Source of the DNA: a virus
Lineage: Duplodnaviria > Heunggongvirae > Uroviricota > Caudoviricetes
Length of the DNA stretch: 39,954 bases
Direction: 5' to 3' (one strand)
Virus record (IMG/VR): IMGVR_UViG_2563366978_000009
Span: 1 to 39,954 of that record
Positions 1-36,049 of the stretch are shown here, piece after piece (within the stretch, counting starts at the first letter, position 1; each line of letters begins with the position of its first letter). The notes below the pieces were generated by a model, which worked only from the letters and a program-made list of their open reading frames with translations, had not been told where the DNA came from and did not search any database. The position numbers and the translations under genes are program-made.

Positions 1-516
1 ATGAAATTAAAAAAATGTCTTCTGCCTGTGGCAATGTTAGCGTCATTTACTCTGGCAGGATGCCAGTCAAATGCTGATGATCATGCCGCCGATGTTTATC
101 AAACCGATCAACTGAATACCAAACAAGAAACTAAAACCGTTAATATTATTTCCATTCTTCCCGCAAAAGTTGCCGTAGACAACGCCCAAAATAAACGGAA
201 CGCACAAGCCTTCGGCGCGCTTATTGGCGCTGTCGCTGGCGGTGTTATCGGCCACAACGTCGGGTCTGGCAGCAATTCCGGAACGACAGCAGGTGCAGTT
301 GGCGGCGGAGCTGTTGGCGCAGCAGCGGGTTCTATGGTGAATGATAAAACCTTAGTGGAAGGTGTTTCTTTAACATATAAGGAAGGCACCAAAGTGTATA
401 CCTCCACCCAGGTGGGTAAAGAGTGCCAGTTTACGACAGGTTTAGCCGTTGTTATTACCACGACGTATAACGAAACGCGTATTCAGCCAAATACCAAATG
501 TCCTGAAAAGAGCTAA
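1..516 (+). CDS. yfgH: Outer-membrane lipoprotein, SlyB/Pcp-type glycine zipper (host flank, YfgH-like)
   Basis: Signal peptide with lipobox LAGC, DVY motif, then Gly/Ala-rich block GALIGAVAGGVIGHNVG. Length 171 aa and adjacency to a 179-aa ORF and a guaA 3' remnant fit the enterobacterial yfgH-yfgI-guaA locus. Symbol assigned by synteny and length, not by search. Confidence 0.55.
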   Translation: MKLKKCLLPVAMLASFTLAGCQSNADDHAADVYQTDQLNTKQETKTVNIISILPAKVAVDNAQNKRNAQAFGALIGAVAGGVIGHNVGSGSNSGTTAGAVGGGAVGAAAGSMVNDKTLVEGVSLTYKEGTKVYTSTQVGKECQFTTGLAVVITTTYNETRIQPNTKCPEKS

Positions 517-531
517 TAATCAGGAGGAGTC

Positions 532-1071
532 ATGAAGAAAGTTTTTCTTTGCGCCATCTTAGCCTCCTTAAGCTATCCGGCTATCGCCTCATCATTGCAG
601 GATCAACTCTCGGCTGTCGCAGAAGCGGAACAGCAAGGTAAAAATGAAGAGCAAAGGCAGCATGACGAATGGGTCGCGGAGCGCAACAGGGAAATCCAGC
701 AAGAGAAGCAACGTCGCGCAAACGCCCAGGCCGCGGCTAATAAAAGAGCGGCAACGGCAGCAGCGAATAAGAAAGCTCGTCAGGATAAACTGGACGCCGA
801 AGCCACTGCGGACAAAAAACGCGATCAAAGTTATGAAGATGAGCTACGTAGCTTAGAGATTCAGAAGCAAAAACTGGCGCTGGCGAAAGAAGAAGCCCGC
901 GTTAAGCGCGAAAACGAATTTATCGATCAGGAACTGAAGCACAAAGCTGCGCAAACCGATGTGGTGCAATCTGAAGCTGACGCAAACAGAAATATGACTG
1001 AAGGCGGTCGCGATCTGATGAAAAGCGTGGGTAAAGCAGAAGAGAACAAATCGGACAGCTGGTTTAACTAA
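532..1071 (+). CDS. yfgI: Secreted Lys/Ala/Gln-rich charged protein (host flank, YfgI-like)
   Basis: RBS AGGAGG 6 nt upstream; N-terminal signal peptide; 179 aa; followed by a bidirectional terminator. Symbol by synteny and length only. Confidence 0.5.
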   Translation: MKKVFLCAILASLSYPAIASSLQDQLSAVAEAEQQGKNEEQRQHDEWVAERNREIQQEKQRRANAQAAANKRAATAAANKKARQDKLDAEATADKKRDQSYEDELRSLEIQKQKLALAKEEARVKRENEFIDQELKHKAAQTDVVQSEADANRNMTEGGRDLMKSVGKAEENKSDSWFN

Positions 1072-1110
1072 GCGATGTCAGTAACTTCAAGCCTATGATT
1101 CGTGAGTATA

Positions 1111-1139
1111 AAAAACCCTCTGTAGTAACAGAGGGTTTT
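1111..1139. terminator. Rho-independent terminator hairpin
   Basis: AACCCTCTG / CAGAGGGTT stem with 6-nt loop, A-run upstream and T-run downstream, directly after the 532..1071 stop. Confidence 0.6.
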
Positions 1140-1149
1140 GTTCATTCAT

Positions 1150-1190
1150 AGTACAGGGTTCAAATCATTCCCACTCAATTATTTACGACA
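1150..1190. other. Candidate prophage attachment core carrying the terminal codons of guaA
   Basis: Reverse complement of 1165..1179 reads ATT GAG TGG GAA TGA (I-E-W-E-stop), matching the IEWE C-terminus recalled for GMP synthase. The frame is closed by a stop two codons further upstream, so only the last codons are present. Exact core limits not determinable from one junction. Confidence 0.4.
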
Positions 1191-1289
1191 ATCATAACCA
1201 ATTGAGTGATAACATTTTTCCAAAACTTCATTTTTCTAGTACCGTTTTATATACCGTCACCGGAAATCAGTACCATGAAAAATGCCATG

Positions 1290-1772
1290 CTATCTGGTCA
1301 GGGTGTCGTATTGTTTTTCGCAGACTCTTCCGGCTTCGGCTGCCCGGTCAGCATACTCTGCCAGTTGTCTGTTTCTCTCGAGAGATTTGCTGAGCACGTC
1401 GGCAAGCAAAACTCCGGTGTCTGCGGCTGACGTCCCAGCGCCGACAATGGCGTTATACTGCCTGAGCTGCTCACGGATGGCAAAGAGTTGTTGCTGCAAC
1501 CGGCCAGCGCGAGCGGCAGCATCAAGAGCATCATTGCGCGCCTGGTCGATCCTCTGCTGCGCTTCACGTTCATTGATCGATTTCTCCTGTTCGTAGTGCT
1601 GACGAACTATCTCATCTTCAGCTTTGCGGTCTTCCTTCGCCTGCGCATACCCGGCATCGTACTGACGACTGCCGTGTGCATTCCAGGCTACAACTCCTGA
1701 TATGACCAGAACAGCAAGCATCGCCATGATAACCAACTGTTTCCAGTATGCTTTTGCGAATGCCCAGATCAT
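1290..1772 (-). CDS. Rz-like i-spanin
   Basis: N-terminal TM helix then Gln/Arg/Ala-rich coiled coil; ATGA overlap with the endolysin stop; last gene of the lysis cassette. Confidence 0.75.
1298..1534 (-). CDS. Rz1-like o-spanin lipoprotein embedded in Rz
   Basis: Alternative frame wholly inside Rz; [13 protein letters not shown] signal with lipobox; Pro-rich mature part. Start chosen at the internal Met pair; exact start uncertain. Confidence 0.5.
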   Translation of the reverse strand: MMLLMLPLALAGCSNNSLPSVSSSGSITPLSALGRQPQTPEFCLPTCSANLSRETDNWQSMLTGQPKPEESAKNNTTP

Positions 1773-2398
1773 ACCGCCAGCACCTTACTGGCAGTTATGT
1801 ATCGCGCGCGCCGGTCATCAATGCCGTTCCGGCCACCATTGATAAGCAGAGTTACACGTGCAATATCTCCGGTATACTTCATGCAGCCTTTGCTGGAGAA
1901 GAACCACGCCGCGCTACGAGCCGCGTATTCGTCCTGCGCCAGCAGTTCAGGACTCTCCAGCAGGTCAACCTTAAGACCGTTTCCACAGTCACGATAGTTA
2001 TTCAAACCGGTAATCTGGATAAGTCCGCGCCCACGGTAGTTCCAGCCGTCACCAGGGGCATTGTTCCCCATGCGTTTGCTGTACACCAGATTGGCGATCG
2101 CTCGCTGGCGCTCGAGTGGCAATGGTGGCTCACCAGCACGTCGCCCCAGTGCATTAGCCTGCCCCTGAGTGAGACGCCCAGCCCGAACGAAGTTAGCCAG
2201 TCCGCTGACGCTGTAGTTGAAATTCTCCTGCAACCGGGTGAAGCCCACAGACTCATGCCCGACCTGAGCAATAAACATTGCCAGATCTTCTGGTTTGCTG
2301 ATACCAAACTCTTTCATCGCAGAAGTTATATGCGAGAACCAGCGTGCGGCCAGTTCCTCGCTGATACCAGCAGCTCGCTGGAATTGTTTAATCTCCAT
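1769..2398 (-). CDS. Endolysin, glycoside hydrolase family 19-like
   Basis: Start MEIKQFQ at 2398 with GAGG RBS (the long ORF has an implausible N-extension). Contains the GHESxxF block typical of GH19 chitinase-like lysozymes. Sits between holin-like and Rz genes. Confidence 0.8.
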
Positions 2399-2696
2399 GT
2401 TTAGACCTCGATATTTTGAAAATCTGAACAACGTTACCGCGTGTTTTAATAACCGCGGCAAGCATGACAGCGTTGATAATGACCTCAGATAAATCCACAG
2501 CCATTGGCGTGCGTAACCAGATTGCATAAGCGACACGAACTGGAATGCTGGCCGCAGCAACAATCAGGAAATAAGCAAGCCACCCACCCCATCGCCTGTG
2601 TTGAGAACCGTTTCTCCGAAATGTGGCAACTCGAACTGCTATACCGGCGCAAATAACCGCATTGGTGATAAGCAAAAAAAGCTCATGAGTTACCAT
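2388..2696 (-). CDS. Holin-like membrane protein (about 3 TM)
   Basis: 102 aa, three hydrophobic segments, overlaps the endolysin start by 11 nt. Confidence 0.5.
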
Positions 2697-3096
2697 CGTC
2701 TTTTCTCCCCGGAATTAACTCGCGTGGATTATCGGAACGGTGATAGAGCCAGATCCCAATTCGCACAGCGACGATTGCTGACACAAATGCACCGGCAGAG
2801 AAAACAATCCCTTTCTCGAAAGAATCCTGTGTGATTGTAGGGATCAGGCTGGCTATGCCGATAAGAATTGATGCTGCTGGTTTGTAGAATAGAAGTCCGC
2901 AGAGAAAGCTAAGCATCGACAAGAGCACGCGACGACGAATGGGATACTCTACCGCAGAGGTAACAAAAATCACCGCCCCAGCCAAAGACCCCAAAGCAAC
3001 CTCAGGAGGAACTCCTGCTATCACTGCCGCCAAAGAACTCATGCTAAGCCACTGATTTAAAGTTTCACTGGTTAGTTGAGCTGACATGTTTTCCAC
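2683..3096 (-). CDS. Lysis-cassette membrane protein (about 4 TM; holin or antiholin-like)
   Basis: 137 aa, four hydrophobic segments, overlaps the next gene by 14 nt. Function inferred from position only. Confidence 0.4.
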   Translation of the reverse strand: MENMSAQLTSETLNQWLSMSSLAAVIAGVPPEVALGSLAGAVIFVTSAVEYPIRRRVLLSMLSFLCGLLFYKPAASILIGIASLIPTITQDSFEKGIVFSAGAFVSAIVAVRIGIWLYHRSDNPRELIPGRKDDGNS

Positions 3097-3453
3097 CGTT
3101 TATATGCATAACTACCTCCTGAACAGTAAAGCATTACGCATGATAAACCATTTATGGTTTTTTGTTACCCAATATTACCAATCCAATTCGCGATGGTCAA
3201 AACATATCCACAGCGGTAAGTTTGAGTGTTTTCATTTCCAAAACTTTATACAATAATATATGCAGTCTGTTATTTTTACGCACAATAAAAACACGATACC
3301 AGCTATTTCGCCATAAATACAATTTCCTTTAATGCTGCCAACAGTGCCTGCAAAACATATAACAGAACACATAAATAACAGGCATAATATAGATTTAATA
3401 ATCTAAGTGCATATAAATATCATTTAAGAAGTTAAGAGCATTATTATAATAAC

Positions 3454-3483
3454 AATAACCCCGCTGTTTTATTCGGGGTTATT
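3454..3483 (-). terminator. Hairpin downstream of the tailspike gene
   Basis: AATAACCCCG / CGGGGTTATT 10-bp inverted repeat with 10-nt loop, 10 nt past the tailspike stop, in AT-rich DNA. Confidence 0.45.
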
Positions 3484-3493
3484 GCATTTATTA

Positions 3494-6469
3494 TTACATT
3501 GCCATTAATATAAACATAGCCAATTCGTCATAACGAATTCCGTAGCGTCCTCCTGCTTTTTTTACAAGAATCATATCTCCTGTTTTATATTGAGAATAAA
3601 TTTTCTCACCTGTATCAGGATCTGTGCTCTCTTCAGTTATCACCTCTTCATCCCATACGTCAGGCCATTCATCGTAACACCAAAAAGCATATTGCTCCGG
3701 GTTTAAACCATGCTTTCTAAGAATATCCCCTACGGTTTGAGCGCCAACGCCAAAATGATACCTGGACGACTCAATTCCTTTGTGATTAATTGAGTCATTA
3801 AATTTAAATTTATAGATGACTGACTTTATTTCAATAGCGGCATTACGCTCTGCATTAAGAATATCATATCTTGTTTTAAGAGTTTCATCTGACGTATTGA
3901 TTGACCCGGTTCCTGCATAGATAACAGAGCATCTGTTTGATGGCTGTCCAATAGCTTTAACATTATCATCAACAGGAGCTATTTTATTAGCATCTGCCAA
4001 CCACCAGTCTGTTCCATCAGCGTGACCGATTCTTACTCTTATCCCACTTCTAATATTTAAACTTCCAGTATTGCTCTGTAAATTACAATCTCCTGACGTT
4101 GGTCCAAGCAGTACAGTTTTACCAACACCACATACTACTCTGGCATTTCCTTTTTGTGATACGAGTCTTGACTCACCTCCTGACTGCTCAGGAAGAGATT
4201 TATGGTCTATAAATGCATCGCGGGGGTTAAATACACCGTCTCCAGAATTATATCTTCCTCCTGTATAGTTGTTAAATACAGGACCCCAGTCAACGCCATT
4301 GCCTTCAGAGCACCCGACCATTCTAAGCACTCGAGTATTCCCTGCTGCATATGGTAATGAGCTTGTTGATTGCCGGGAAGCTATCATACGTGCTCCATAA
4401 CCAATAGCATTACCACCATTTATAGTTACATATGCTTGCTGGCTTTCGAAATATGTACTGTAAAAGTTCATATTTCCACAGTCATGTAGATGAATAAGAA
4501 CATCATCCCATCCCTGAATGGTTCCTGCATGTACCTGTACACCGCGAACTGGTTCCCCTGAAACCTCCATACACTCTGATGGCCGGCTGAATGGCTGAGA
4601 CAGGTATTGCGATGTGGCAAGCAGATGTGTGTGGTGATACAGGCTGGTAATGTAGCAATCGAAAAATTGCGTTCCCGCCATACCAAAGTTATCTATGTCA
4701 TTTCGCCGTATAGTAGAACCTACTGTTGCCTCAGAAGCGTTAGACACTCCAGTAAATACTAACTTATCACCGGATACGGATAATCCTGAATAAGTGAAAT
4801 TCCTGCCTCCCGATCTTAAAACCCCGGACGTTTCGAAGGTGTGGCTTGATGACCATGGGATTTCGATAGTGCTGGACGTTACCGCTGTAATTCGGAATAC
4901 ATCATGGGCGCGGATCGAAACACCCTTGAATCCCTGGAATCTACAGTGATAATAGTTTTCATCCTCGCCCTGAGCGGCCAGCGTGCCAGATACAGGAATG
5001 TTCGTTTTTAAAAGTGCCGTCTTGCGCCAGTATCCAACCACCTGCAAATTGCGGTATTCATTGCCAAAAGACGCACGTGACCAAATACCTACATCCCACT
5101 CATCGCCAAGACCGGTATTTGCAATGTCTTTATAACCATCCAGCCCATTGAAATATGGAACAATACGAAAGTTCTCAAGGCGAACACATCCTGTCTCTGG
5201 CATCAATATTGCGGCAGAGAATGGTTTAAGCGTGGCTCTTGTAGCCCCATTAGCATCACCGTTAGTAAAATCCAATAAATCATATGATGACGCAGGTGCC
5301 GTTGTTGTATACGGGTCTTCGGAAGATGGATTAGAAACCACACCACCACTAACATCCATATTAGAAACACAATCTACAGTATATTTTTTATTTCCTACAC
5401 CGTACATCAGGAATGTGGTCCCTGTGGTAATATCAGGAGCAAATGTTGCAGTATATCCAGAGACCCATTTGCCCACACCAAGACCAATTATCCCACCACC
5501 AGAAACAGGTGTTAACGTATCCGTTATTACATACGCATTATCAGTACCATAAATAACCTTTCCTGTGTTAATGGCAGCTTGCCACGCGGCCCAGTCTATT
5601 GACTGAGATAATGAGTCAACAAAAGGATATAAGGATTTTGCTTCAGAAATTGAAGAAAACCTCTCAGATAATGGATGATATTTCCCATCCCCAATTGCTC
5701 CGAATTGTTTTACATTTAAGAAAAGAGCATTGTTTTCATGCTGAGTTATAGTTACAGCCCCGGCAAATGGCTGCCTTACACCAATTAATGCATCACCTTT
5801 TCCTTCTCCTGCGCTAGATAATTGCAGAAGAACATCTGCGGCACTGCCAGAAGGCACAGGTACACCTATAGGTTTACCATTGACGATACCAATGACAGTT
5901 TCTTCCAGTAAATGAACTGGAGGAAGTGGTTCAATAAAATTATCTGGAACCCGTAATGTCCTGTTAATATTCACATTAACAATATTATCAACATAATTCT
6001 TTGTAGCTGCATCTTGAGGCTTGGAAGGATCGCGCAAATTGCGGATGTAATTATTCAAAGCATCGTAATAGTTTGCCACAAATGATGGTTTGCGCAGCGC
6101 CAGGCTAAACCAACTGCGGACTTGCTGTATCAGCATCGTCAGCTTATCTAACGCGTCTTCATGCACCTCAGCGAAAAACTTTCCCTGATTTCGCAGATCA
6201 GTTTCCTGCGTAACCGGGAGCTCTCGTGATATAGAAATCTGATAACCGTTAGCTAACGCCTTCGACAGAATTACATTACCGCCATTATATCCACCAGCCC
6301 CAGTGACAGTGTAATCAGTATCAAGAGCCAGCACAGCGATATTTTCGTCAAGGTCAACCACCTGCACTACCAGATCAGATTCCTTGAAAACCCTAAAGGT
6401 ATAAGGAAATGAAGTCGTAACGCCATTGCCTGTGTATTCGTTGTGGTCAACTTCGGTTGAGACCGTCAT
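3494..6469 (-). CDS. Tailspike / tail fibre: T7 gp17-like N-terminal adaptor, central receptor-binding region, C-terminal S74-type intramolecular chaperone
   Basis: 991 aa; GGAG RBS. N-terminus (EYTGNGVTTSFPYTF...LDTDYTV) resembles the T7 tail-fibre N-domain. C-terminal ~150 aa has the SDETLKT block, like the Ser-Lys autocleavage motif of endosialidase-type chaperone domains. Gly/Ser/Thr/Asn-rich middle. Confidence 0.75.
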   Translation of the reverse strand: MTVSTEVDHNEYTGNGVTTSFPYTFRVFKESDLVVQVVDLDENIAVLALDTDYTVTGAGGYNGGNVILSKALANGYQISISRELPVTQETDLRNQGKFFAEVHEDALDKLTMLIQQVRSWFSLALRKPSFVANYYDALNNYIRNLRDPSKPQDAATKNYVDNIVNVNINRTLRVPDNFIEPLPPVHLLEETVIGIVNGKPIGVPVPSGSAADVLLQLSSAGEGKGDALIGVRQPFAGAVTITQHENNALFLNVKQFGAIGDGKYHPLSERFSSISEAKSLYPFVDSLSQSIDWAAWQAAINTGKVIYGTDNAYVITDTLTPVSGGGIIGLGVGKWVSGYTATFAPDITTGTTFLMYGVGNKKYTVDCVSNMDVSGGVVSNPSSEDPYTTTAPASSYDLLDFTNGDANGATRATLKPFSAAILMPETGCVRLENFRIVPYFNGLDGYKDIANTGLGDEWDVGIWSRASFGNEYRNLQVVGYWRKTALLKTNIPVSGTLAAQGEDENYYHCRFQGFKGVSIRAHDVFRITAVTSSTIEIPWSSSHTFETSGVLRSGGRNFTYSGLSVSGDKLVFTGVSNASEATVGSTIRRNDIDNFGMAGTQFFDCYITSLYHHTHLLATSQYLSQPFSRPSECMEVSGEPVRGVQVHAGTIQGWDDVLIHLHDCGNMNFYSTYFESQQAYVTINGGNAIGYGARMIASRQSTSSLPYAAGNTRVLRMVGCSEGNGVDWGPVFNNYTGGRYNSGDGVFNPRDAFIDHKSLPEQSGGESRLVSQKGNARVVCGVGKTVLLGPTSGDCNLQSNTGSLNIRSGIRVRIGHADGTDWWLADANKIAPVDDNVKAIGQPSNRCSVIYAGTGSINTSDETLKTRYDILNAERNAAIEIKSVIYKFKFNDSINHKGIESSRYHFGVGAQTVGDILRKHGLNPEQYAFWCYDEWPDVWDEEVITEESTDPDTGEKIYSQYKTGDMILVKKAGGRYGIRYDELAMFILMAM

Positions 6470-6573
6470 GTTAAATCTCCAGATAGTCGCAGCACCCGTT
6501 GCGCCGCATATCTGGTTATTCTATTACCTGAAAAACCAGATATGGATGGAAAGAGTGTTAATGTGAGCAGATA

Positions 6574-6588
6574 TTACCTTTCAGGTGA
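6574..6588. promoter_or_regulatory. Operator-like palindrome TTACC-N5-GGTGA (one mismatch)
   Basis: TTACCTTTCAGGTGA in the intergenic region between the tailspike start and the LexA-boxed gene. Confidence 0.5.
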
Positions 6589-6625
6589 TTCGCAAAACGT
6601 GCTGGATAGCAAACAAATTATTTGA

Positions 6626-6645
6626 TACTGTATAAATATACAGTT
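6626..6645. promoter_or_regulatory. LexA (SOS) box
   Basis: TACTGTATAAATATACAGTT matches the CTGT-N8-ACAG consensus TACTGTATATATATACAGTA at 18 of 20 positions, about 20 nt upstream of the ATG at 6666. Confidence 0.75.
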
Positions 6646-6665
6646 ATTGCATGGAGAAGATTAAG

Positions 6666-6923
6666 ATGCAGCAGTATCACTATCCACTGGAAGACGGATT
6701 TACCGAAAGGATTCACACGCCGGGAGGCGTCAGGTCACTGGTGGAGGGATCGCATTTGATGAAATTACTCCGGGATCTCGATAAGGATGGATTTAATGTC
6801 GATGGCCCACTTGCCGAACTGACTGCACTGATTAACTACGTCACCAGCTCACAGATGTCTATGCGGGATCTGCAAACACATCTCGACTATTGTGCCGAAC
6901 AATTACGAAAACAAACCCGGTAA
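6666..6923 (+). CDS. Small antirepressor-like protein, paralog of the C-terminal domain of the AntA-type protein at 8074..8730
   Basis: Start at 6666 with GGAG RBS (ATG at 6651 lacks an RBS and abuts the LexA box). About 40 percent identity by eye to the C-terminal 75 aa of the 8074..8730 product (shared PL, IH.P.GV, LM.LL, DG..V.G..AEL, RD.QTH). Confidence 0.6.
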   Translation: MQQYHYPLEDGFTERIHTPGGVRSLVEGSHLMKLLRDLDKDGFNVDGPLAELTALINYVTSSQMSMRDLQTHLDYCAEQLRKQTR

Positions 6924-6930
6924 ATTTAAA

Positions 6931-6946
6931 GGCCGCAAGAGCGGCC
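6931..6946. terminator. Hairpin between convergent genes
   Basis: GGCCGC AAGA GCGGCC; shared by the + gene ending at 6923 and the - gene ending at 6946. Confidence 0.45.
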
Positions 6947-7674
6947 TATCGTTTCGCTTTGTGCTCATCCCAGCACGTTTTGCACCATGCCATTAAGCCG
7001 TCCGCATTTTGATTATTAGGGTAAAAGCTGGTTCGTTTTCTGCGGACATTACAAATTGGGCACCACTTCATATGGCGTGTATTCTTTGGGCCATCGAGAC
7101 ACCTTGCACACCACTTAGTCAATCCATCTGGATTTTTTGACGATTTCCTGAATTTTTCATATGGAAGGTTTATTCTGCATCGCAAGCACTGCTTGCTACC
7201 ACTTGAAACTCTGTTAGCTGATTCTTCTTTTGGCGGCGATACAGAAGGTATTCTTGCTGGCTCTGATACTGCCTGAGGTGCTTTTTTAGATGACTGAGAC
7301 GATATGTCACCACCAGGGAATCTTCCATGATATGCCGGACGCGTTGACACTCCAGGTGGAAGCTCAGCTGTAAACGGCTTTGACTGAATCAGTTGCCTCT
7401 CTTTTGCTAACTCCTGCTGTTTATAATATGTCTGGATTACCGCACTATCATAAGCAGGAGGTGCGGAAATATTAGGCGCATTACCTCCAGTTTTTTGAAA
7501 CTGAGTAGAGGTGTGTTCTATCACCTGTGTACGATTAATCGTTATCTCCCCATCTTCGGTCTTTATCGTTTTGTTATGATTAACGACCGTACGATCAGAG
7601 ATCTTAGTCTTGTTCTGGTTGATAACGTAAATAATCACCGCAACCACACCAACAACTATCCAGAAAACTTCCAT
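6946..7674 (-). CDS. Membrane-anchored protein with Pro/Ser-rich linker and C-terminal triple zinc-ribbon-like repeats
   Basis: N-terminal TM (MEVFWIVVGVVAVIIYVI); C-terminus has CLRC, DGLTKWCARC, KWCPIC, DGLMAWCKTC. No family recognised. Confidence 0.6.
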   Translation of the reverse strand: MEVFWIVVGVVAVIIYVINQNKTKISDRTVVNHNKTIKTEDGEITINRTQVIEHTSTQFQKTGGNAPNISAPPAYDSAVIQTYYKQQELAKERQLIQSKPFTAELPPGVSTRPAYHGRFPGGDISSQSSKKAPQAVSEPARIPSVSPPKEESANRVSSGSKQCLRCRINLPYEKFRKSSKNPDGLTKWCARCLDGPKNTRHMKWCPICNVRRKRTSFYPNNQNADGLMAWCKTCWDEHKAKR

Positions 7675-7694
7675 TTCTTTTCCTCACAATAACA

Positions 7695-7709
7695 TTACCT
7701 TAAAGGTAA
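7695..7709. promoter_or_regulatory. Operator palindrome TTACC-N5-GGTAA (perfect)
   Basis: TTACCTTAAAGGTAA, followed by a degenerate copy cTTGCTTTCAGGTGA at 7713..7727. Confidence 0.55.
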
Positions 7710-7787
7710 TATCTTGCTTTCAGGTGATCAAGCGTTAAACCCAATAAACCAAATACGGTTGATTTTAATATTTCTTCGCGTTTATAA

Positions 7788-7802
7788 TTACCTTTGCGGT
7801 AA
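7788..7802. promoter_or_regulatory. Operator palindrome TTACC-N5-GGTAA (perfect), overlapping a TATAAT -10
   Basis: TTTATAATTACCTTTGCGGTAA; TATAAT at 7783..7788. Confidence 0.55.
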
Positions 7803-7892
7803 ATTTACATCGCACTCCTCTTGTGCCATAGTAATCGGGCACTGGCAAAATCCAGTGCCGGGATTGGTCTCCCGGATTACTAAGTGGCGCAT

Positions 7893-7915
7893 ACCACGCC
7901 AGACGTGGTTTTTTT
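7893..7915 (+). terminator. Intrinsic terminator or attenuator inside the long leader of the AntA-type gene
   Basis: ACCACG CCAGA CGTGGT followed by seven T, preceded by another 8-bp hairpin at 7837..7860, about 160 nt upstream of the ATG at 8074. Confidence 0.5.
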
Positions 7916-8073
7916 ATGCGTATAGCACAGTCATGCCAGAATTATGGTGGGCTGAATGGGGGTCCGAAAGGACGCCGGTACCACTTAGGCCGGTAAGACC
8001 AACTCCGTTCAGTTCACCACCATCTGATTGGTCTCAGCGGTGGTGATGTAATTCGCTAAGTGGAGACGCCATC

Positions 8074-8730
8074 ATGAACGCTCAACTCATCCCCGTATTC
8101 AACGGCACTATATCTAACGAAACAGCCCTACTTTGTAATGCCCGCGATCTGCACGCTTTTTTAGGTGTTAAAAAGGTGTTTGCAGCATGGATTACAAATC
8201 GCATATCAGAATACGAATTCATTGAAAATCAAGACTATATTTTGCTTTCCAATTTGGGAAAGCAAACATCTGGTAGAGGCGGCCACAACCGCAAAGAGTA
8301 CCACCTCACCCTTGATACAGCCAAAGAGCTGGCGATGGTCGAGCGTAACGAAAAAGGTCGCCAGGTGCGACGCTACTTCATTGAATGCGAGAAACGTTTA
8401 AGACAACAAGAAACAAAAGTGGAGAAGGTCTTGTCAGGCTTCATGCCCGCCATTATGGAGGCGATCAAGCTGGAAGACAAAAAAGAATACAGCGCCCCAC
8501 TGAAGCCCGGCTACCGCAGTCTGATTCATTCTCCGTCTGGTGTTCTCGGCCTGACGGAGAACTCACTGCTGATGAATCTGCTGAACCAGTTACAGGACGA
8601 CGGGCACGACGTATCGGGCGCGGCGGCGGAGCTGACCACCATGTTCTGCTACATCGTCGGTGTGAGCAAATGCCTGCGTGATATCCAGACCCACGCGGAG
8701 TACATCAACGACAAGGCAGGGTTCTTCTGA
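8074..8730 (+). CDS. Antirepressor, AntA-type N-terminal domain
   Basis: 218 aa; N-terminal block LH.FLGV..F..W...R...YEF.E..DY...LT.D.AKELAM.ERNEKG...R.YFIECE as recalled for AntA/AntB; GGAG RBS; C-terminal domain paralogous to 6666..6923. Confidence 0.65.
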
Positions 8731-8801
8731 CGGCGGCGGCACAGGGATGTGCCTTTAAATAATTCTGTACAGATTGCAGACTGTGGGTGAATAGCGTACT
8801 A

Positions 8802-8816
8802 TTACCTCAAGGGTAA
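8802..8816. promoter_or_regulatory. Operator palindrome TTACC-N5-GGTAA (perfect)
   Basis: TTACCTCAAGGGTAA, about 60 nt upstream of the small ORF at 8877. Confidence 0.55.
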
Positions 8817-8876
8817 ACGGATTGGTTTCATTTTTATTAATCCGTGTAATGAACTTATGAGATATGAGGTAATGTC

Positions 8877-9056
8877 ATGCGAAACGAAAAATTGCAGATG
8901 CGTAGAGCGCAAGCTGCCGCAAGACGTTCTTTCAATGGAAGCGTAGAGTACGTAAAAGTTACTATGACAAAAGATCACGCAAGTCGCGTATCCCGCGCTT
9001 TCTTTGATTCTCGTAACAATAAGGAAAATTATGAGTTCGTCTGCGTCGCAGAATGA
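8877..9056 (+). CDS. Small basic ORF (59 aa) overlapping the YafO-like gene start; candidate antitoxin
   Basis: GAGG RBS 7 nt upstream; below the 60-aa track cutoff; 26-nt overlap with the next gene in another frame. No family recognised. Confidence 0.3.
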   Translation: MRNEKLQMRRAQAAARRSFNGSVEYVKVTMTKDHASRVSRAFFDSRNNKENYEFVCVAE

Positions 9057-9576
9057 TAAAAATCAAATTGTCAGATATAAGGGTCGAGTGTTGCATACGC
9101 AAAATTTCTCGGCCCTTTGTGCATCTGATCTTGAGCTGAAGAAAGTATCTGATGCCTTTACCCAGTATTGGAAAACGGGATACCATCCATCTCTTGGTAA
9201 AGATGCTGCATTTGCTCGTCCGACAGAAATGCTTAAACTAAATGTCAGGCATACTCATGTCGATAACCAAGACTATATTCCAGAAGATAGTGATAAAAAA
9301 CACACTGGTAAAAAATCATCTTGGGATGCATGGAAAAATATAGCGTCTGTACAAGTAAAATGCATACCAACAAGTGATTGCTTTTTAGTTTATTCGGTAA
9401 ATCACAATCGTGATGCGCTGGTTATGTTTTTTGTTGACGCAGATGCTCACAACATAACTGAGCAAGAAGAGTTTAAAGAGGAAGCAATCACTATCAGTTA
9501 TCAATTCTTTGAGAAAACAAAAACAGAACCAATGCCTTTAGAAGAAGATCTTTTTTCTGATAAATGGAAGGAATAG
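9031..9576 (+). CDS. YafO-family toxin-like protein
   Basis: ATG at 9031 with AAGGA RBS (track ORF starts at an upstream TTG). Blocks SDAFTQYWKTG, LGKDAAFA, VRHTHVDNQDYIP, CFLVYSVNHNRDALVMFFVDA parallel YafO as recalled (FISYKRDG, FGRDALY, VAHIHLANENNPFP, AHLVYCQGAFDEQAWLLIAIL). Low GC. Confidence 0.5.
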   Translation: MSSSASQNDKNQIVRYKGRVLHTQNFSALCASDLELKKVSDAFTQYWKTGYHPSLGKDAAFARPTEMLKLNVRHTHVDNQDYIPEDSDKKHTGKKSSWDAWKNIASVQVKCIPTSDCFLVYSVNHNRDALVMFFVDADAHNITEQEEFKEEAITISYQFFEKTKTEPMPLEEDLFSDKWKE

Positions 9577-9596
9577 CCCGCAGCGCGGGCTTTTTT
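9576..9596 (+). terminator. Rho-independent terminator
   Basis: GCCCGC AGC GCGGGC followed by six T, directly after the stop at 9574..9576. Confidence 0.7.
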
Positions 9597-9668
9597 GTGG
9601 ACGAAACAAAAGTCAGTGCTACACTCATTGACGCCACATTGAGGTGGCTTATAGATGGAAATTTCACA

Positions 9669-9830
9669 ATGAAAAAAGCATTTGCTGCACTGTTCGTTTT
9701 GTTGTCTCTGGTAGCTTCAACTCAGGCCTTTGCCGGTCGTTGTCAGCACGACAGCGATACTGCTGCTGACGGCTCCCGCTGCGGTGGGCGTTCTGCGGAT
9801 TCCCGTCCGGGCGGCGGTGGCATTCGTTAA
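9669..9830 (+). CDS. Small secreted Cys-containing peptide (53 aa)
   Basis: Signal peptide MKKAFAALFVLLSLVASTQAFA then a Gly/Arg/Ser-rich 31-aa tail with two Cys; higher GC than its neighbours. Could be spurious. Confidence 0.35.
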   Translation: MKKAFAALFVLLSLVASTQAFAGRCQHDSDTAADGSRCGGRSADSRPGGGGIR

Positions 9831-9858
9831 AAACAAGGCCGCGAAAGCGGCCTGTTTG
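9829..9858. terminator. Bidirectional terminator between convergent genes
   Basis: A-run, GGCCGC GAAA GCGGCC, then TGTTTG. Confidence 0.6.
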
Positions 9859-9859
9859 A

Positions 9860-10711
9860 TCACTGTGCAGTTTTCGCTGATCGATTTTCAGCTCTAAATT
9901 CAAGAACCGTTTCAATATTTCTTTCCTTCAGCATATCAATAACATTTTTATTCATTTGACTATCACTGGTTAATAACTGGTAAACGTCGCTTCTCTCTTT
10001 ATCAGAGTTTTCTTTAACAGCTGCTTTGCATGCCAAATGCTTATTGAAATTTTCTACATCGCTAGTACAGGAATTTACGGCTGCTGATGAAATATCAGAC
10101 GCTGAAGAAACACCATCATCCAAACGTTTTATAGCATTTTCTATACATGAGTTAAGGGAATAAACGACAACTGAGCGATACCCTTCAGACGCACACCATT
10201 CTAAATTTCTTGAAGGATCGAGTGGTTTTACTTCGCTGGATTGAATTAACTTGTCAAAAACTGACTTATATTCAATCTGTTTTTTATCTATAGCCCATAC
10301 TTCAGTAGCTGATTTATAATTCCCCGTATGCCTATTAACATCAAATCCATGTTTTATAAGCAAATCTGCCCATGAAAGATTTATTGATTCATTGTTATGA
10401 GGCCATTTTCCTGTCAGAACCGCCCCCATAGACCCCATATATCCGCCATATGATGGTATAGCACCATGGCTCAGTAACTTCTCAGCAACCACAGGGCAAT
10501 TAATTACATAAGAGGCGTAAAGCCCATTCCATAAAGCCCCTCTATAGTAATCGCCACGATTAGGTTCTTTTAAGTCGATAGCCTTTGATAATTGTTCACA
10601 CGTTTTGCATGCATCAAAGTTATCCTTATTGCATTGCAATGAACTGGCAGCTGTAGGATTTACAGAGACTATTGAAAGCACTATGCCAAAAAACAAATTT
10701 ATTTTTTTCAT
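9860..10711 (-). CDS. Secreted protein with possible ankyrin-like repeats; last gene of the virion operon
   Basis: Start 2 nt after the gp16-like stop; signal peptide MKKINLFFGIVLSIVSVNPTAAS; segments VVAEKLLSHGAIP and ADLLIKHGFDVNRHTGNYKSAT resemble ankyrin repeats (tentative); low GC. Confidence 0.6.
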   Translation of the reverse strand: MKKINLFFGIVLSIVSVNPTAASSLQCNKDNFDACKTCEQLSKAIDLKEPNRGDYYRGALWNGLYASYVINCPVVAEKLLSHGAIPSYGGYMGSMGAVLTGKWPHNNESINLSWADLLIKHGFDVNRHTGNYKSATEVWAIDKKQIEYKSVFDKLIQSSEVKPLDPSRNLEWCASEGYRSVVVYSLNSCIENAIKRLDDGVSSASDISSAAVNSCTSDVENFNKHLACKAAVKENSDKERSDVYQLLTSDSQMNKNVIDMLKERNIETVLEFRAENRSAKTAQ

Positions 10712-10712
10712 C

Positions 10713-13700
10713 CTATTTCATCTGCTCTTCAACTTTATTTAGTAATGGTGATATCGCCCACAGGTTCTGAAAAGGTAGCATTTTACGGACCGCGTGGGTT
10801 TGCTGGCTGTCAAATTCTCCGTTAAGTACACCATTCGCAACCGTCGCGGCATCACCGCCAAGATCAAAGGTAGGACCAAGTAAAGCACCAATAGCATTAC
10901 GACTCTGAAACCTTGATACCGGAGGCGCACCAAACATCGCGCCAAGACCAAACCTACCACCGCTTATGTTCTCAACGGTATTCAGCGGCTCAGAGAGCCA
11001 GCCAAGCATTCCGCCCCGGTCGATCCCCTCTTTCACAAGGTTATTCCAGCTGTAGTCAATATCGCGACCGCTTAACTTCTGTTTCATCATATAGACCATT
11101 GAGCCAAGCGCAATCGTGCCAAGCGCACCAAGATAGAATGCAGCATCGCCCTGCTGGATACCAGATACCAGCACCCTGTTATGCTGTGCGAAGATAAACG
11201 TTTTGAACTGCGTGATCATCTTCCAGCCTTCTTTACTAAAAAACAGCGGTGTATCACCTACGCCAGGCGTTACAATCACTGAGTCTACATCTTTCAGCAC
11301 TGCAGACTGGAAAATCTCTCTAGCGAAACGGTCATCCCACAGATGACTATGCCCGGTTAACAGCCCGTCCATATCCTCTCCGTGCTTCCCGAATTGCTCC
11401 CCGATTCGGCGCAGAACATCTTCATTGATGCCGACCTGTGCCATCTTCCGCATTTCACTTTTGGAGAGCGTGCCACCAGCAGAAACTTGGCGAGCCGCGT
11501 CAAGTATCCTCGACTGCACTATCATCCCAGACCATGATTTAAGTGCGCTGTTCCACTGATTCATCAGCGTCCAGTTACCGAATTTCTGCGTCATCCAGTT
11601 CAGGCCTCGCTCAGCGGCGCTTCTCCGGCTATATGGGTCAGTAAGATCCGCTATAGCCTTTGTACGCGTAGACAGGACATAATCAAGCCCAACGGCCATT
11701 TCTCGCAAATCCCTGGTTGCAATCTTCACTGAGTCCATATTTTTAAGCATGCTTACCATTGGTCCGAGAGATTTTCTCAGGCCATGCTGCATCATCGGTC
11801 GCATCAGATCAGTTGCAGCGGAGACGGTCATTCCACCAAGCAAACGGAGGAAGTTAATATTCCTAGCAACTCGCCCGGCACGAACAAAGAAACTGCGTGG
11901 ATCTTGAGGTGCACCGTAAGTACCAAGCAGTCGATCACGCATAGCCGTAATATCCCTAATATCAGCCTCCCGTTGCTTCTCAAGAACTGCACGTCGTTTA
12001 GGTGTTTTAGCCTCTTTTATTAGCCGGGTATATTCCTCACTAACCTGACGGATTTGCTCCCCCATATCTTTACGGCCAAACTGCGCAGTCAGCTCAATTT
12101 CTGGTGCCACCTGCCGGAGATAACTTTCCATGATGTAGTTAACATCTGATTCAAGAAAATCTTCTATACGCTCATCAGGAATAAGCAGCGTTCTGCTTTT
12201 AGTGAAACCAGCCCGACCAACGAGTCTCTCTGGGATAATATCGGCTGGTACAAGCCCGGAAGGTGCGCCTATTATTTTATTCACGATCTCGTCAGCAGCG
12301 TCCTCTGCTTCCTCTCGGGATAGAGGCTCCATCTGCTTCAGTGCTCGTTCGCGGCTTGCATTCAGCCTTGTGGTTGAATTTGCCCGTTTTTGCAGTCGGC
12401 GAAGCTCAGAACGATATTTCCGTGGATTATCCAACAACTCCATATGGCGCTGATAGACAGGAAGCTCACTCTTTGCCTGCGCTATATCATCAAGGCGTGT
12501 TTTAAGGTCAGAGCTTTCTTTCATCATTCTTGCCTGAAGTTTTTCTGATGAAGTCTCGGCCAACTCTTTTTCTATTCTTGTAAGACGCGCCTGTGTGTCA
12601 GTCTCCTGAGATATAAGCTTATTTCGTTTATCCAGTTCTTCCATGAGTAGAATTTTTTTACCAGACCATTTCTCCGCTTCAGCGATTTCACTAGCGAGAG
12701 CATCAGCGCGCGGTGCCGATTCCTCTGCAGTTTTTAGCAATGAATTTATCCTTTCAATTCGCTGACCTGCTTTGTCAGCACCTTTGGCACTAATCCCTTG
12801 TATCCAGTTGGCAATTCGCCCTCTGAATTCAGTGCGGTCGGAAAGTATCTTATCGAACTTATAAATGCGGGGAAGATAACTTTTCGCCGTCACGACATCG
12901 ATATCCTTAGGAAGGATCCCCAGTTCCTGCATACGGGCTTTTGTGGTCTCGAAAATGGGGCGGATTCTGGCGGCTGCTTGTGAAACCTCAGGAATATCAC
13001 TCTGATCACCACGGCGCATAGCCATGCCAACAGCTTCATTGAAATCAATAAAGTTCATCCTCTTCACGCCGCGGGCGCTAACAGATTTGCTGTACTGCTG
13101 GTAAGCATCACGAGTGGCTTCCATCTGCTTATAAAGCATGGCGTCGTATTGCTTAATCTTAGTCTCGACTGCCGTAAACGTAGCCAACCCCTCATCATTT
13201 TTGGCGAAGAAATAGTTATTTTCGGCAAGCTGCTGGTTAATCTGACGGGAGACAAGAGATGGTGATTGCGCCAAGCGGCCAGCAGGAGTGACACTCAACG
13301 TTTTGTTAGCAAGTCCAAGTCCAGCGAGCTGTTCCTGATCGAGTGTGGTATTGAAAACCTGAGCTGCACCAATGCTTTGAGGAGAATCCATACCTCGCAA
13401 ATGATTACCTACTGAGTTAACCACTGCCTCGCGCGCGCCAGGTCCAGCAAGTAGCTGTGCACCAGCACCAAGGATCCCACCAACGAGAGCATCAACAACA
13501 ACGTTCGATACGCTCTCCATCGGTGAGCGAGCTTCCTGAGTGGCCTGTAATGCGGCCTCTGAAGCAACACTGCCAGCAGCATTCGCCAGGGCAAAACGCC
13601 CGGCTGTTTCTGCAATACGACCGCCACGAACGACAGCGCCGAACGGAATAAACATAGAAATCGCATTGAATGGATCTGCTAATCTCATTGCTACAGAAGA

Positions 13701-14102
13701 GACTGTACCAGCAAATCCCAAGCCTGAATTGTATTCCATGTCAGCTCTCTGCTGATCGATTCGATGTTTAATTGCCATTGTTTCTTCAGGCGAACCGGAG
13801 TTGATAAACGAATCTGCAAAATCTTCATAGCCTTTAATATCTGCTGCATCGTTATCAAATGGGTTATATCCTTCAACCCTGTCAAACTGACTGAAAGGAG
13901 CACTGGCAATAAAGCTACCCAGCGTGTTATCTATACGAAATGCTGCTTGTCTAGACCTTTGAACGCGTTGATCACTGGTAAATGGGTTCACAGCAGAAAG
14001 CAAAGAAGGTGTTTCCATATAGAAATTACTGTCATCAGGTGCTGCTATTTGCTGAATATCCTCGCCAAGCAACTCTTTAGGATCCTGTTCATATATCGGC
14101 AT
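10713..14102 (-). CDS. Internal virion / ejection protein, T7 gp16-like position
   Basis: 1129 aa, directly downstream of the gp15-like and gp14-like genes; assigned by size and order. Confidence 0.55.
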   Translation of the reverse strand: MPIYEQDPKELLGEDIQQIAAPDDSNFYMETPSLLSAVNPFTSDQRVQRSRQAAFRIDNTLGSFIASAPFSQFDRVEGYNPFDNDAADIKGYEDFADSFINSGSPEETMAIKHRIDQQRADMEYNSGLGFAGTVSSVAMRLADPFNAISMFIPFGAVVRGGRIAETAGRFALANAAGSVASEAALQATQEARSPMESVSNVVVDALVGGILGAGAQLLAGPGAREAVVNSVGNHLRGMDSPQSIGAAQVFNTTLDQEQLAGLGLANKTLSVTPAGRLAQSPSLVSRQINQQLAENNYFFAKNDEGLATFTAVETKIKQYDAMLYKQMEATRDAYQQYSKSVSARGVKRMNFIDFNEAVGMAMRRGDQSDIPEVSQAAARIRPIFETTKARMQELGILPKDIDVVTAKSYLPRIYKFDKILSDRTEFRGRIANWIQGISAKGADKAGQRIERINSLLKTAEESAPRADALASEIAEAEKWSGKKILLMEELDKRNKLISQETDTQARLTRIEKELAETSSEKLQARMMKESSDLKTRLDDIAQAKSELPVYQRHMELLDNPRKYRSELRRLQKRANSTTRLNASRERALKQMEPLSREEAEDAADEIVNKIIGAPSGLVPADIIPERLVGRAGFTKSRTLLIPDERIEDFLESDVNYIMESYLRQVAPEIELTAQFGRKDMGEQIRQVSEEYTRLIKEAKTPKRRAVLEKQREADIRDITAMRDRLLGTYGAPQDPRSFFVRAGRVARNINFLRLLGGMTVSAATDLMRPMMQHGLRKSLGPMVSMLKNMDSVKIATRDLREMAVGLDYVLSTRTKAIADLTDPYSRRSAAERGLNWMTQKFGNWTLMNQWNSALKSWSGMIVQSRILDAARQVSAGGTLSKSEMRKMAQVGINEDVLRRIGEQFGKHGEDMDGLLTGHSHLWDDRFAREIFQSAVLKDVDSVIVTPGVGDTPLFFSKEGWKMITQFKTFIFAQHNRVLVSGIQQGDAAFYLGALGTIALGSMVYMMKQKLSGRDIDYSWNNLVKEGIDRGGMLGWLSEPLNTVENISGGRFGLGAMFGAPPVSRFQSRNAIGALLGPTFDLGGDAATVANGVLNGEFDSQQTHAVRKMLPFQNLWAISPLLNKVEEQMK

Positions 14103-35464: not shown

Positions 35465-36049
35465 ATGAAAAGTATCCAGGACGTCCGCAGGCAAAATCTC
35501 AACGACTTGATCGACCGTGAATTCAATGGTGTTCAGACGCGGATGGCAGAAAAACTTGGAACTCAGGCAAATCTGGTAAACCGCTGGGCTCTTGGCAAGA
35601 AGGTTATCGGCGACCAGGTTGCGCGAAAAATTGAAGCTGCCGCCAATAAACCCCGTAACTGGCTTGATATCGATCGCTCGCTTTCTCAGGAAGGTTTTCA
35701 GCCTGTCGGCCCGAGTGATATAGGTCAGCTGGCTGCTCACAACCTGGAACGCTGGATGAGCGAAAGCCGCGACCTTTCAACGCAGGGAAAACTACACCGC
35801 GCATCCGGCGTCGCCCAGGTGACAATCAGCCGCCTGTTAAACAATGAGGTCAGCGTTTCCATTTCCACCCTGGAGAATGTTGCATCCGCATTTGGGCGTC
35901 ACGGATATGAATTACTGATTCACCCGCACGACCCCGCGACTATCAACTATGACCGCTCGCGCTACGCATTGTTACCTGAAACAGAGAAGGCAAAGATCGA
36001 AAGTTACATTGAATTTGTCATCAACCAGAACGAAAAAAACAAACAATAA
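35465..36049 (+). CDS. Prophage repressor-like protein with two tandem HTH (XRE-type) domains and no S24 peptidase domain
   Basis: 194 aa; HTH-like segments at about aa 20-45 and 120-150; no Ser/Lys autocleavage domain; operators on both sides. Confidence 0.6.
   Translation: MKSIQDVRRQNLNDLIDREFNGVQTRMAEKLGTQANLVNRWALGKKVIGDQVARKIEAAANKPRNWLDIDRSLSQEGFQPVGPSDIGQLAAHNLERWMSESRDLSTQGKLHRASGVAQVTISRLLNNEVSVSISTLENVASAFGRHGYELLIHPHDPATINYDRSRYALLPETEKAKIESYIEFVINQNEKNKQ

Follow-up and report, generated by a model that had tools for sequence, protein, structure and literature searches.

YafO of Escherichia coli K-12 is an experimentally established toxin of the RelE superfamily, which cleaves translated mRNA (PMC2814082). 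The family to which it belongs (PF_YafO) is small (~1,000 sequences), and its genes are arranged in the order antitoxin, then toxin (PMC11980606). Here, we describe a two-gene cassette encoding a YafO-like protein, located within a 39,954-nucleotide (nt) stretch of viral DNA (IMG/VR record IMGVR_UViG_2563366978_000009, positions 1 to 39,954; hereafter, the window), which is derived from a phiV10/epsilon15-type prophage of E. coli (genus Uetakevirus; phiV10/TL-2011b-like). The cassette is composed of an open reading frame (ORF) of 59 amino acids (aa), followed by a larger ORF of 181 aa. It is reasonably probable, judging from the sequence comparisons presented below, that it constitutes a bicistronic system resembling the toxin-antitoxin (TA) modules of type II, which is carried as exchangeable cargo in an accessory slot of Uetakevirus, is controlled by the phage repressor (Rep), and encodes a small protein that neutralizes a ribonuclease (RNase).

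The YafO-like protein and its small partner

The larger ORF (9031-9576, plus strand) starts with an ATG codon, preceded at a distance of 5 nt by the sequence AAGGA (9021-9025), and encodes an acidic protein (isoelectric point, pI, 5.8). This protein matches the Pfam profile PF13957 (YafO_toxin) over profile positions 3-92 of 101 (E=8e-6; 26.3 bits versus a gathering score of 25) and is assigned in PHROGs to phrog_1651, a group of unknown function. Its close family comprises 27 clusters at 90% identity, all of them from Enterobacterales. A profile search of 1.84 billion representatives identified 70 relatives, grading from 160-200 aa to 130-150 aa, the size of the classical YafO proteins; 35 of the 62 relatives that were aligned match PF13957 (best E 5e-29). 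The profile built from these 62 sequences aligned with K-12 YafO over 121 columns (hhalign probability 97.6%, E 3.8e-12), and the aligned motifs include GKD/GRD, RHxH, SD..LVY and AH. Two residues (G56 and H76) are invariant among the 62 relatives and six others (F43, D58, P64, S115, Y121 and H140) are conserved in at least 90% of them; all are present in the protein encoded by the window.

The features of the 181-aa protein are also those of a RelE/BECR-type fold. Its best structural matches are HigB2 of Vibrio cholerae and HigB1 of Mycobacterium tuberculosis, and in the fold comparison RelE, YoeB and YafQ scored 6-7, with ParE and BrnT lower. An AlphaFold2 (AF2) model, generated from a shallow alignment of 23 sequences, reached a predicted local distance difference test score (pLDDT) of 57 and was set aside. 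No match to the toxin was found in the PDB sequence search, the BFVD fold search or the genome-contig scan. The protein is not of the compact, single-domain type of ~130 aa that characterizes the YafO family; it falls into a long-form subgroup (160-200 aa) and, compared with K-12 YafO, carries an additional ~18 aa at the N-terminus, a ~35-aa insertion (residues ~78-112) and a further ~20 aa at the C-terminus. By these comparisons, it is a long-form homologue of the YafO-family toxins, with a predicted RelE fold.

The smaller ORF (8877-9056, plus strand) starts with an ATG codon located 7 nt downstream of a GAGG Shine-Dalgarno sequence (8866-8869). It encodes a basic protein (pI 10.0), which is a candidate minimal antitoxin. 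The two ORFs overlap by 26 nt (9031-9056), and it is the C-terminus of the small protein (...NYEFVCVAE) that is encoded across the start of the toxin gene. In nine divergent viral loci, whose toxins share 57-81% identity, the small ORF is retained and both its start codon and its Shine-Dalgarno sequence are invariant. The ratio of nonsynonymous to synonymous substitution rates (dN/dS, Nei-Gojobori), calculated for the non-overlapping codons, is 0.17-0.51. Because it is conserved together with its translation signals in divergent loci, and given these dN/dS values, the small ORF is, on comparative grounds, a real gene that is co-inherited with the toxin gene.

A small ORF (55 aa) is also present in locus L046, the toxin of which shows 44% identity. 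This locus (positions 1630-2056) is the most divergent of the phage-borne relatives, and carries an extra 71-aa ORF upstream of the 55-aa one. The product of the extra ORF contains two copies of a strand-helix-like motif (xIxMTxEx) and ends with ...NHEFVL, so that the ORF resembles a second, tandemly duplicated copy of the partner gene.

The 59-aa protein matches phrog_6685 (E=3e-45). It has no family match in Pfam or NCBIfam, no match in PADLOC and no sequence match in the PDB, and no DNA-binding family was detected in it by the Pfam, NCBIfam and PDB sequence searches. A profile search performed with this protein yielded 37 clusters, none of which is named. Comparison of the small-ORF profile with YafN revealed no similarity (hhalign probability 0.6%), and the locus lacks a cognate antitoxin of the Phd/YefM (YafN) type.

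We also inspected the neighbourhoods of seven distant family members (21-46% identity), including a canonical PF13957 protein of 132 aa. In all seven cases an ORF of 53-84 aa is located directly upstream of the toxin gene, which it overlaps or abuts, and the toxin-partner pairing is seen down to 21-30% toxin identity. The partners are basic in seven of the eight cases examined. The C-termini of most of them are alike, and a [D/N]xE[F/L] pattern can be recognized there: ...NYEFVCVAE, ...NNEFCCAE, ...NYELFE, ...DVEFV, ...GEFELA, ...GYELEEAV and ...MQFFEAF. The C-terminus of K-12 YafN (...DDDFNDFKE) is acidic-aromatic and only loosely resembles these tails. One of the relatives (P0058; loci L050/L051) is a non-phage member with a 53-aa partner; it lies in a defence-island-like setting and is immediately followed by a fused gene for the methylase and specificity functions of a type I restriction-modification system.

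The two genes of the cassette are adjacent, co-directional, translationally linked and co-inherited, which is the arrangement of type II TA systems. Probably, the 59-aa protein represents a minimal antitoxin, reduced essentially to a toxin-binding tail and devoid of a DNA-binding domain. We infer that partners of this kind would be the usual ones for much of the YafO family.

These results bear on a preliminary description of the locus, in which the two ORFs and their 26-nt overlap had been placed at exactly the coordinates given above. Its proposal that the 181-aa product is YafO-like is borne out by the PF13957 match and the alignment with K-12 YafO; the profile searches that it had recommended for both proteins gave a YafO-family match for the larger one and none in Pfam for the smaller. 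The dissimilarity it had noted between the 59-aa ORF and the YafN/Phd antitoxins was confirmed, and the ORF proved to be genuine and co-conserved. Its description of the partner as non-canonical is correct with respect to YafN; the partner is, however, not peculiar to this locus, as ORFs of 53-84 aa precede the toxin gene in every relative that was looked up.

Regulatory sequences and the exchangeable slot

A conserved sigma-70 promoter (8774-8802, plus strand) precedes the cassette. It is composed of a -35 hexamer (TTGCAG, 8774-8779), a 17-nt spacer and a -10 hexamer (TACTAT, 8797-8802). This promoter was missed by a simple consensus scan (7 of 12 matches), which found the promoter of the AntA-type gene (7759-7788), having the same architecture. 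In the nine divergent loci the promoter takes the form TTGnnn, 17-18 nt and TA(A/C)TAT, followed directly by ATTACC-N5-GGTAA, while the surrounding sequence has diverged.

The palindrome associated with the promoter (8801-8817) has the core TTACC-N5-GGTAA (8802-8816; TTACCTCAAGGGTAA). The last T of the -10 hexamer doubles as the first T of this palindrome, which spans the -10 region and the predicted transcription start near position 8809, and is invariant in the alignment of related loci. The same core is found 16 times in the window with no more than one mismatch (10 exact copies) versus 0.86 expected, a number reached in none of 100 shuffles; the sites are located at positions 2949, 6574, 7695, 7788, 8802, 26141, 26758, 29660, 29678, 33002, 33064, 35010, 35347, 35395, 36107 and 36169. 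The exact copies are placed mostly at early or accessory promoters, including that of the AntA-type gene (7788). TTACC-N5-GGTAA is the sole enriched palindrome of the 5-N5-5 type in four Uetakevirus genomes (the window, epsilon15, Tyrion and BUCT711), and epsilon15, Tyrion and BUCT711 carry 9-11 exact copies, though their repressors are just 42-78% identical. In the RefSeq record of epsilon15 these sites are annotated as protein_bind "repressor, lysogeny". Analysis of repressor-operator covariation over the Uetakeviruses was uninformative, since the TTACC half-site is unchanged even at 42% repressor identity. The arrangement found at 8802-8816 is that expected, by sequence, of a member of the Rep regulon, i.e. 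a promoter overlapped by ATTACC-N5-GGTAAT.

The cassette region shows 100% identity to E. coli chromosomes and 99.9% identity to phage TL-2011b. In the RefSeq record of TL-2011b the small ORF is labelled gp45, "hypothetical", and the large ORF gp44, "type II toxin-antitoxin system YafO family toxin". PGAP annotation of E. coli chromosomes recognizes the 181-aa gene alone, likewise as a YafO-family toxin, and passes over the 59-aa ORF. The slot is located between the AntA-type gene (8074-8730) and a gene encoding a small secreted peptide (9669-9830). Its G+C content is low (0.37-0.41 over positions 8801-9600) compared with that of the DNA just upstream (0.48-0.54) and of the structural genes (~0.50).

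The limits of the exchangeable part were defined by blastn comparison with phage phiv142-3. The two sequences share 98.7% identity over window positions 8000-8821, which include the AntA-type gene, the promoter and the operator; homology stops at 8821 and returns at 9550, covering the final 26 nt of the toxin ORF and the terminator. The latter is an intrinsic terminator (9575-9597, plus strand; AGCCCGC-AGC-GCGGGCT followed by TTTTTTG) with seven pairs (six of them G-C) and a 3-nt loop, common to both phages. The cargo (8822-9549, plus strand) therefore comprises the leader, the small ORF and most of the toxin ORF. Since phiv142-3 keeps the promoter, the operator and the terminator around a different cargo, these three elements are, by this comparison, fixtures of the slot, and 8822-9549 is its swappable content. 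The palindrome itself, being genus-wide and kept in phiv142-3 with other cargo, is on the same grounds a phage repressor operator that belongs to the phage and not to the cargo.

The corresponding part of phiv142-3 (positions 3082-3694, equivalent to 8822-9549 of the window) contains a 55-aa ORF (3090-3257), followed by an ORF of ~146 aa that ends at 3718. The latter encodes the motifs ...GKN...WHYHCGP...SNECIHYAKN..., whose order recalls YafO; a relationship of this alternative cargo to YafO was not detected by hhalign (probability 2%) and no match was found in Pfam. The slot of phiv142-3 may hold a second pair of the RNase type. In a census of 5426 complete E. coli genomes, 465 gave at least a partial match to the query, and the whole cassette was present in 61; in phages devoid of the cassette the flanks alone match.

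The preliminary description had recognized the palindrome at 8802 as a phage operator and had located the genes in AT-rich cargo; the number of copies in the window and the epsilon15 annotation support the former view, and the G+C profile and the blastn boundaries the latter. It had also ascribed to the pair an operator and a terminator of its own: both are indeed present at the positions indicated, yet they belong to the phage slot, being retained in phiv142-3 with other cargo.

There is no indication that the antitoxin regulates its own operon by means of a DNA-binding domain, the only palindrome of the promoter being the phage-wide operator. We considered and rejected the small protein as an autorepressor binding to this operator, which is genus-wide and kept in phages lacking the gene.

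The leader contains a predicted 5' hairpin (8814-8848, plus strand) with 10-nt arms (8814-8823 and 8839-8848) that are 90% complementary. A 5' hairpin of differing sequence is present in most of the related leaders. In most of the related loci (L030-L043) the hairpin is formed instead between the right half of the operator (GGGTAA) and a TTACCC sequence located downstream, and thus it is kept with a changed sequence. A second inverted repeat, with 9-nt arms (8801-8809/8865-8873), would place an anti-Shine-Dalgarno sequence opposite the Shine-Dalgarno sequence of the small ORF (z=-2.7), and the 8814-8823/8839-8848 hairpin is nested with it. An RNA switch based on this repeat was rejected as the main explanation: its left arm is the operator, positioned no further downstream than the predicted transcription start, a mismatch breaks the pairing in L033-L036, and the right arm is in any case constrained by the Shine-Dalgarno sequence.

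Predicted control by the immunity circuit and alternative explanations

The probable binder of the operators is Rep (194 aa; 35465-36049, plus strand), a phage repressor with a double helix-turn-helix (HTH) structure (HTH_3, E=1e-9). It is 100% identical to the repressors of phages phiV10, ZX5 and phiv142-3, and matches the SPC32H repressor, the crystal structure of which has been solved in a Rep-Ant complex (PDB 5d50_A, E=4e-42). Its gene is flanked by two pairs of operators (35347/35395 and 36107/36169). When the ZX5 repressor is overproduced, the lytic cycle is blocked (PMC9782041).

The inferred circuit begins, at its upstream end, with a LexA box (6628-6643; CTGTATAAATATACAG), a perfect match, located 23 nt upstream of the start of the ant gene (6666-6923, plus strand). 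This gene encodes an 85-aa anti-repressor, Ant, which matches the "Anti-repressor protein" of SPC32H (PDB 5d50_E, E=1.4e-46). It is probable that the SOS-responsive inducer is Ant and not the 218-aa AntA/Bro-type "antirepressor" encoded at 8074-8730.

Because the repressor operator overlaps the -10 region and the transcription start, the cassette should be repressed in a lysogen, and its expression is probably tied to the LexA-Ant-Rep induction circuit and not constitutive in lysogens. According to the mechanism that we propose, Rep would hold the 8802 site and keep the pair at a low level or off in a stable lysogen, with no autoregulation. DNA damage would remove LexA, Ant would be made and would in turn remove Rep, and the Rep-controlled promoters, including that at 8774-8802, would open; the cassette would likewise be on early after infection, when Rep is absent. 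Derepression would produce a transcript with a ~68-nt leader carrying the 5' hairpin, from which both proteins would be translated in a coupled manner. Neutralization of the toxin by the 59-aa protein would depend on the [D/N]xE[F/L] tail conserved at the C-terminus of the latter, and toxin left free would cut mRNA at or close to the ribosome, in the manner of K-12 YafO.

Several points weigh against this explanation. The PF13957 score of the toxin barely exceeds the threshold. The charges of the two proteins (acidic toxin, basic partner) are opposite to those of typical RelE-type pairs, so that nucleic acid, rather than the toxin, could be the target of the partner. The action of Rep at the 8802 site is deduced from motif identity alone, and repression from a single operator may be weak. 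In locus L043, a phage that is not syntenic with the window, the promoter, operator and module are found behind a lysis cassette; therefore, either the operator is able to travel with the cargo or this phage has the same immunity type. Finally, if a classical pair with a labile antitoxin were tightly repressed from outside, new lysogens would be poisoned, which implies that repression is leaky or that the antitoxin is stable.

A more far-reaching form of the TA explanation can be proposed, to which, taken as a whole, we attach a rather low probability. In this form, the module would have handed its on/off switch to the immunity circuit, being silent under Rep and firing when Rep is lost through SOS-induced Ant or the anti-repressor of a superinfecting relative, and its role would be to brake translation upon induction or to guard the repressor. 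At the same time, the tail-only proteins of 53-84 aa would be antitoxins of a common, hitherto overlooked type serving the YafO family at large, and the slot would act as an exchange hot spot for RNase pairs.

An alternative of similarly limited likelihood is that the pair is expressed constitutively in lysogens and serves in abortive infection or superinfection exclusion, with the toxin released upon infection by another phage. An AT-rich slot with a promoter at one end and a terminator at the other is typical of accessory prophage genes, some relatives occupy accessory slots beside tail-spike genes, that in L050/L051 adjoins a type I restriction-modification methylase, and defence roles are known for toxins of the RelE superfamily (PMC11980606). 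However, an operator placed over the -10 region and the predicted start predicts repression in the lysogen, and no defence family in PADLOC-DB (2023) was matched, at E≤1, by the toxin, the small protein or five neighbouring proteins.

It is unlikely that the cassette serves the lytic cycle, as an early RNase by which host or phage mRNA is remodelled once repression is lifted, with the small protein acting as a timer or inhibitor and not as an addiction antidote. Such a function would be comparable to that of RegB of phage T4, a RelE-like phage RNase. The cassette indeed shares its operator with the AntA-type promoter (7788) and with the early promoters on either side of the repressor gene, and the slot lies within the anti-repressor region of the phage. 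Nevertheless, the cassette appears to be dispensable, since just 61 of the 465 matching E. coli genomes carry it whole; moreover, members of the family also occur outside phages, and the tight overlap of the two genes is typical of TA pairs.

Very improbable, finally, is the proposal that the 59-aa protein is no antitoxin, being instead a basic regulator that binds nucleic acid or a leader serving translational coupling (in which case the 181-aa protein might be non-toxic or otherwise controlled): its opposite charge to the acidic toxin, its lack of resemblance to any known antitoxin family and a motif (VKVTMTKDHASRVSRA) that recalls the strand-helix of ribbon-helix-helix proteins and is duplicated in the extra ORF of L046 are outweighed by the purifying selection acting on the whole peptide, by the C-terminal tail conserved in most partners of very divergent pairs, and by the retention of the operator in phages without the 59-aa protein, because of which this protein is not the binder of that operator.

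Neighbouring genes, significance and relation to known systems

Several neighbouring features of the window deserve mention. The gene adjoining the slot in all of these phages (9669-9830) encodes a 53-aa secreted or membrane-associated peptide (phrog_14503). Beside it lies a gene (9860-10711) for a 283-aa protein with a signal peptide (phrog_6118), in DNA of 35-40% G+C, and the two genes form a further AT-rich accessory stretch between the slot and the virion genes. On the other side, divergently from the AntA-type gene, the minus strand encodes a 242-aa protein (6946-7674) with an N-terminal membrane anchor and two C-terminal, zinc ribbon-like CxxC pairs; it matches Stc1 (weakly) as well as endonuclease VII-like and Lar-like PHROGs, and an operator is located at 7695. 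The best-matching chromosome (L047; NZ_CP070152.1) is collinear with the window only over positions ~6469-14102, and not over ~1-6469 or beyond ~14100. Its tail-spike protein has 709 aa versus 991 aa in the window, and the coordinates of the early region drift by ~490 nt, which reflects the usual mosaicism of prophages.

Public annotation already contains the toxin call, and the epsilon15 record the operator. Apparently new are (i) the family of small partners and its breadth, (ii) the long-form subgroup of toxins, (iii) the structure of the slot and (iv) the link between the immunity circuit and a TA cassette. In the papers and record annotations consulted, which cover the key literature in part, we found none that ties the Rep-Ant circuit to the control of a TA cassette, and the link is drawn from the position of the operator.

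If this interpretation is correct, the partners would form a new family of minimal antitoxins, which is skipped by annotation pipelines, so that in dozens of E. coli genomes the YafO toxins seem to have no partner. A phage-borne, long-form branch would be added to the YafO family, which has been little studied (~1,000 Pfam members), and the cassette would offer a clean case of a TA pair governed by a prophage immunity repressor instead of its own antitoxin, with a bearing on the timing of toxin expression from prophages. The slot between 8074-8730 and 9669-9830 would be a point of cargo exchange, useful in mining Uetakevirus prophages for accessory and defence genes. Should the cassette be merely a standard TA pair, the practical gain would be a corrected annotation.

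With regard to known systems, the structural matches of the toxin, HigB2 of V. cholerae and HigB1 of M. tuberculosis, share 8-9% sequence identity with it, and higBA loci differ in having the toxin gene first and an antitoxin with an HTH. The Rep-Ant circuit of epsilon15-like phages (SPC32H, epsilon15) resembles that of the window in its homologous Rep and Ant proteins and in the ATTACC-N5-GGTAAT operators spread through the genome.

The closest relative of the cassette is YafN-YafO, a type II pair encoded within the dinB operon of E. coli K-12, with which it shares the antitoxin-toxin gene order and a homologous toxin, the GRD/GKD, HxH, LVY and (A/P)H motifs being common to both proteins. The dinB operon is under SOS control, and for the window a comparable SOS link is inferred through LexA, Ant and Rep. 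The two systems differ in the size of the toxin (132 aa in K-12 versus 181 aa in the window), in the antitoxin (the 97-aa, Phd/YefM-type YafN versus an unrelated, basic partner of 59 aa) and in their genetic context, i.e. a chromosomal operon versus phage cargo placed under a phage operator.

The prophage-encoded system PaaR2-PaaA2-ParE2 is the closest in logic. It likewise combines an antitoxin of ~60 aa without a DNA-binding domain with a toxin of the RelE/ParE fold, and its regulator is a separate protein similar to phage repressors. In PaaR2-PaaA2-ParE2, however, the gene of this regulator lies inside the operon and the toxin is a ParE protein, whereas the cassette of the window encodes a YafO-like, putative RNase, and its predicted regulator is the phage's own immunity repressor, encoded ~26 kb away and served by ~16 operator copies.

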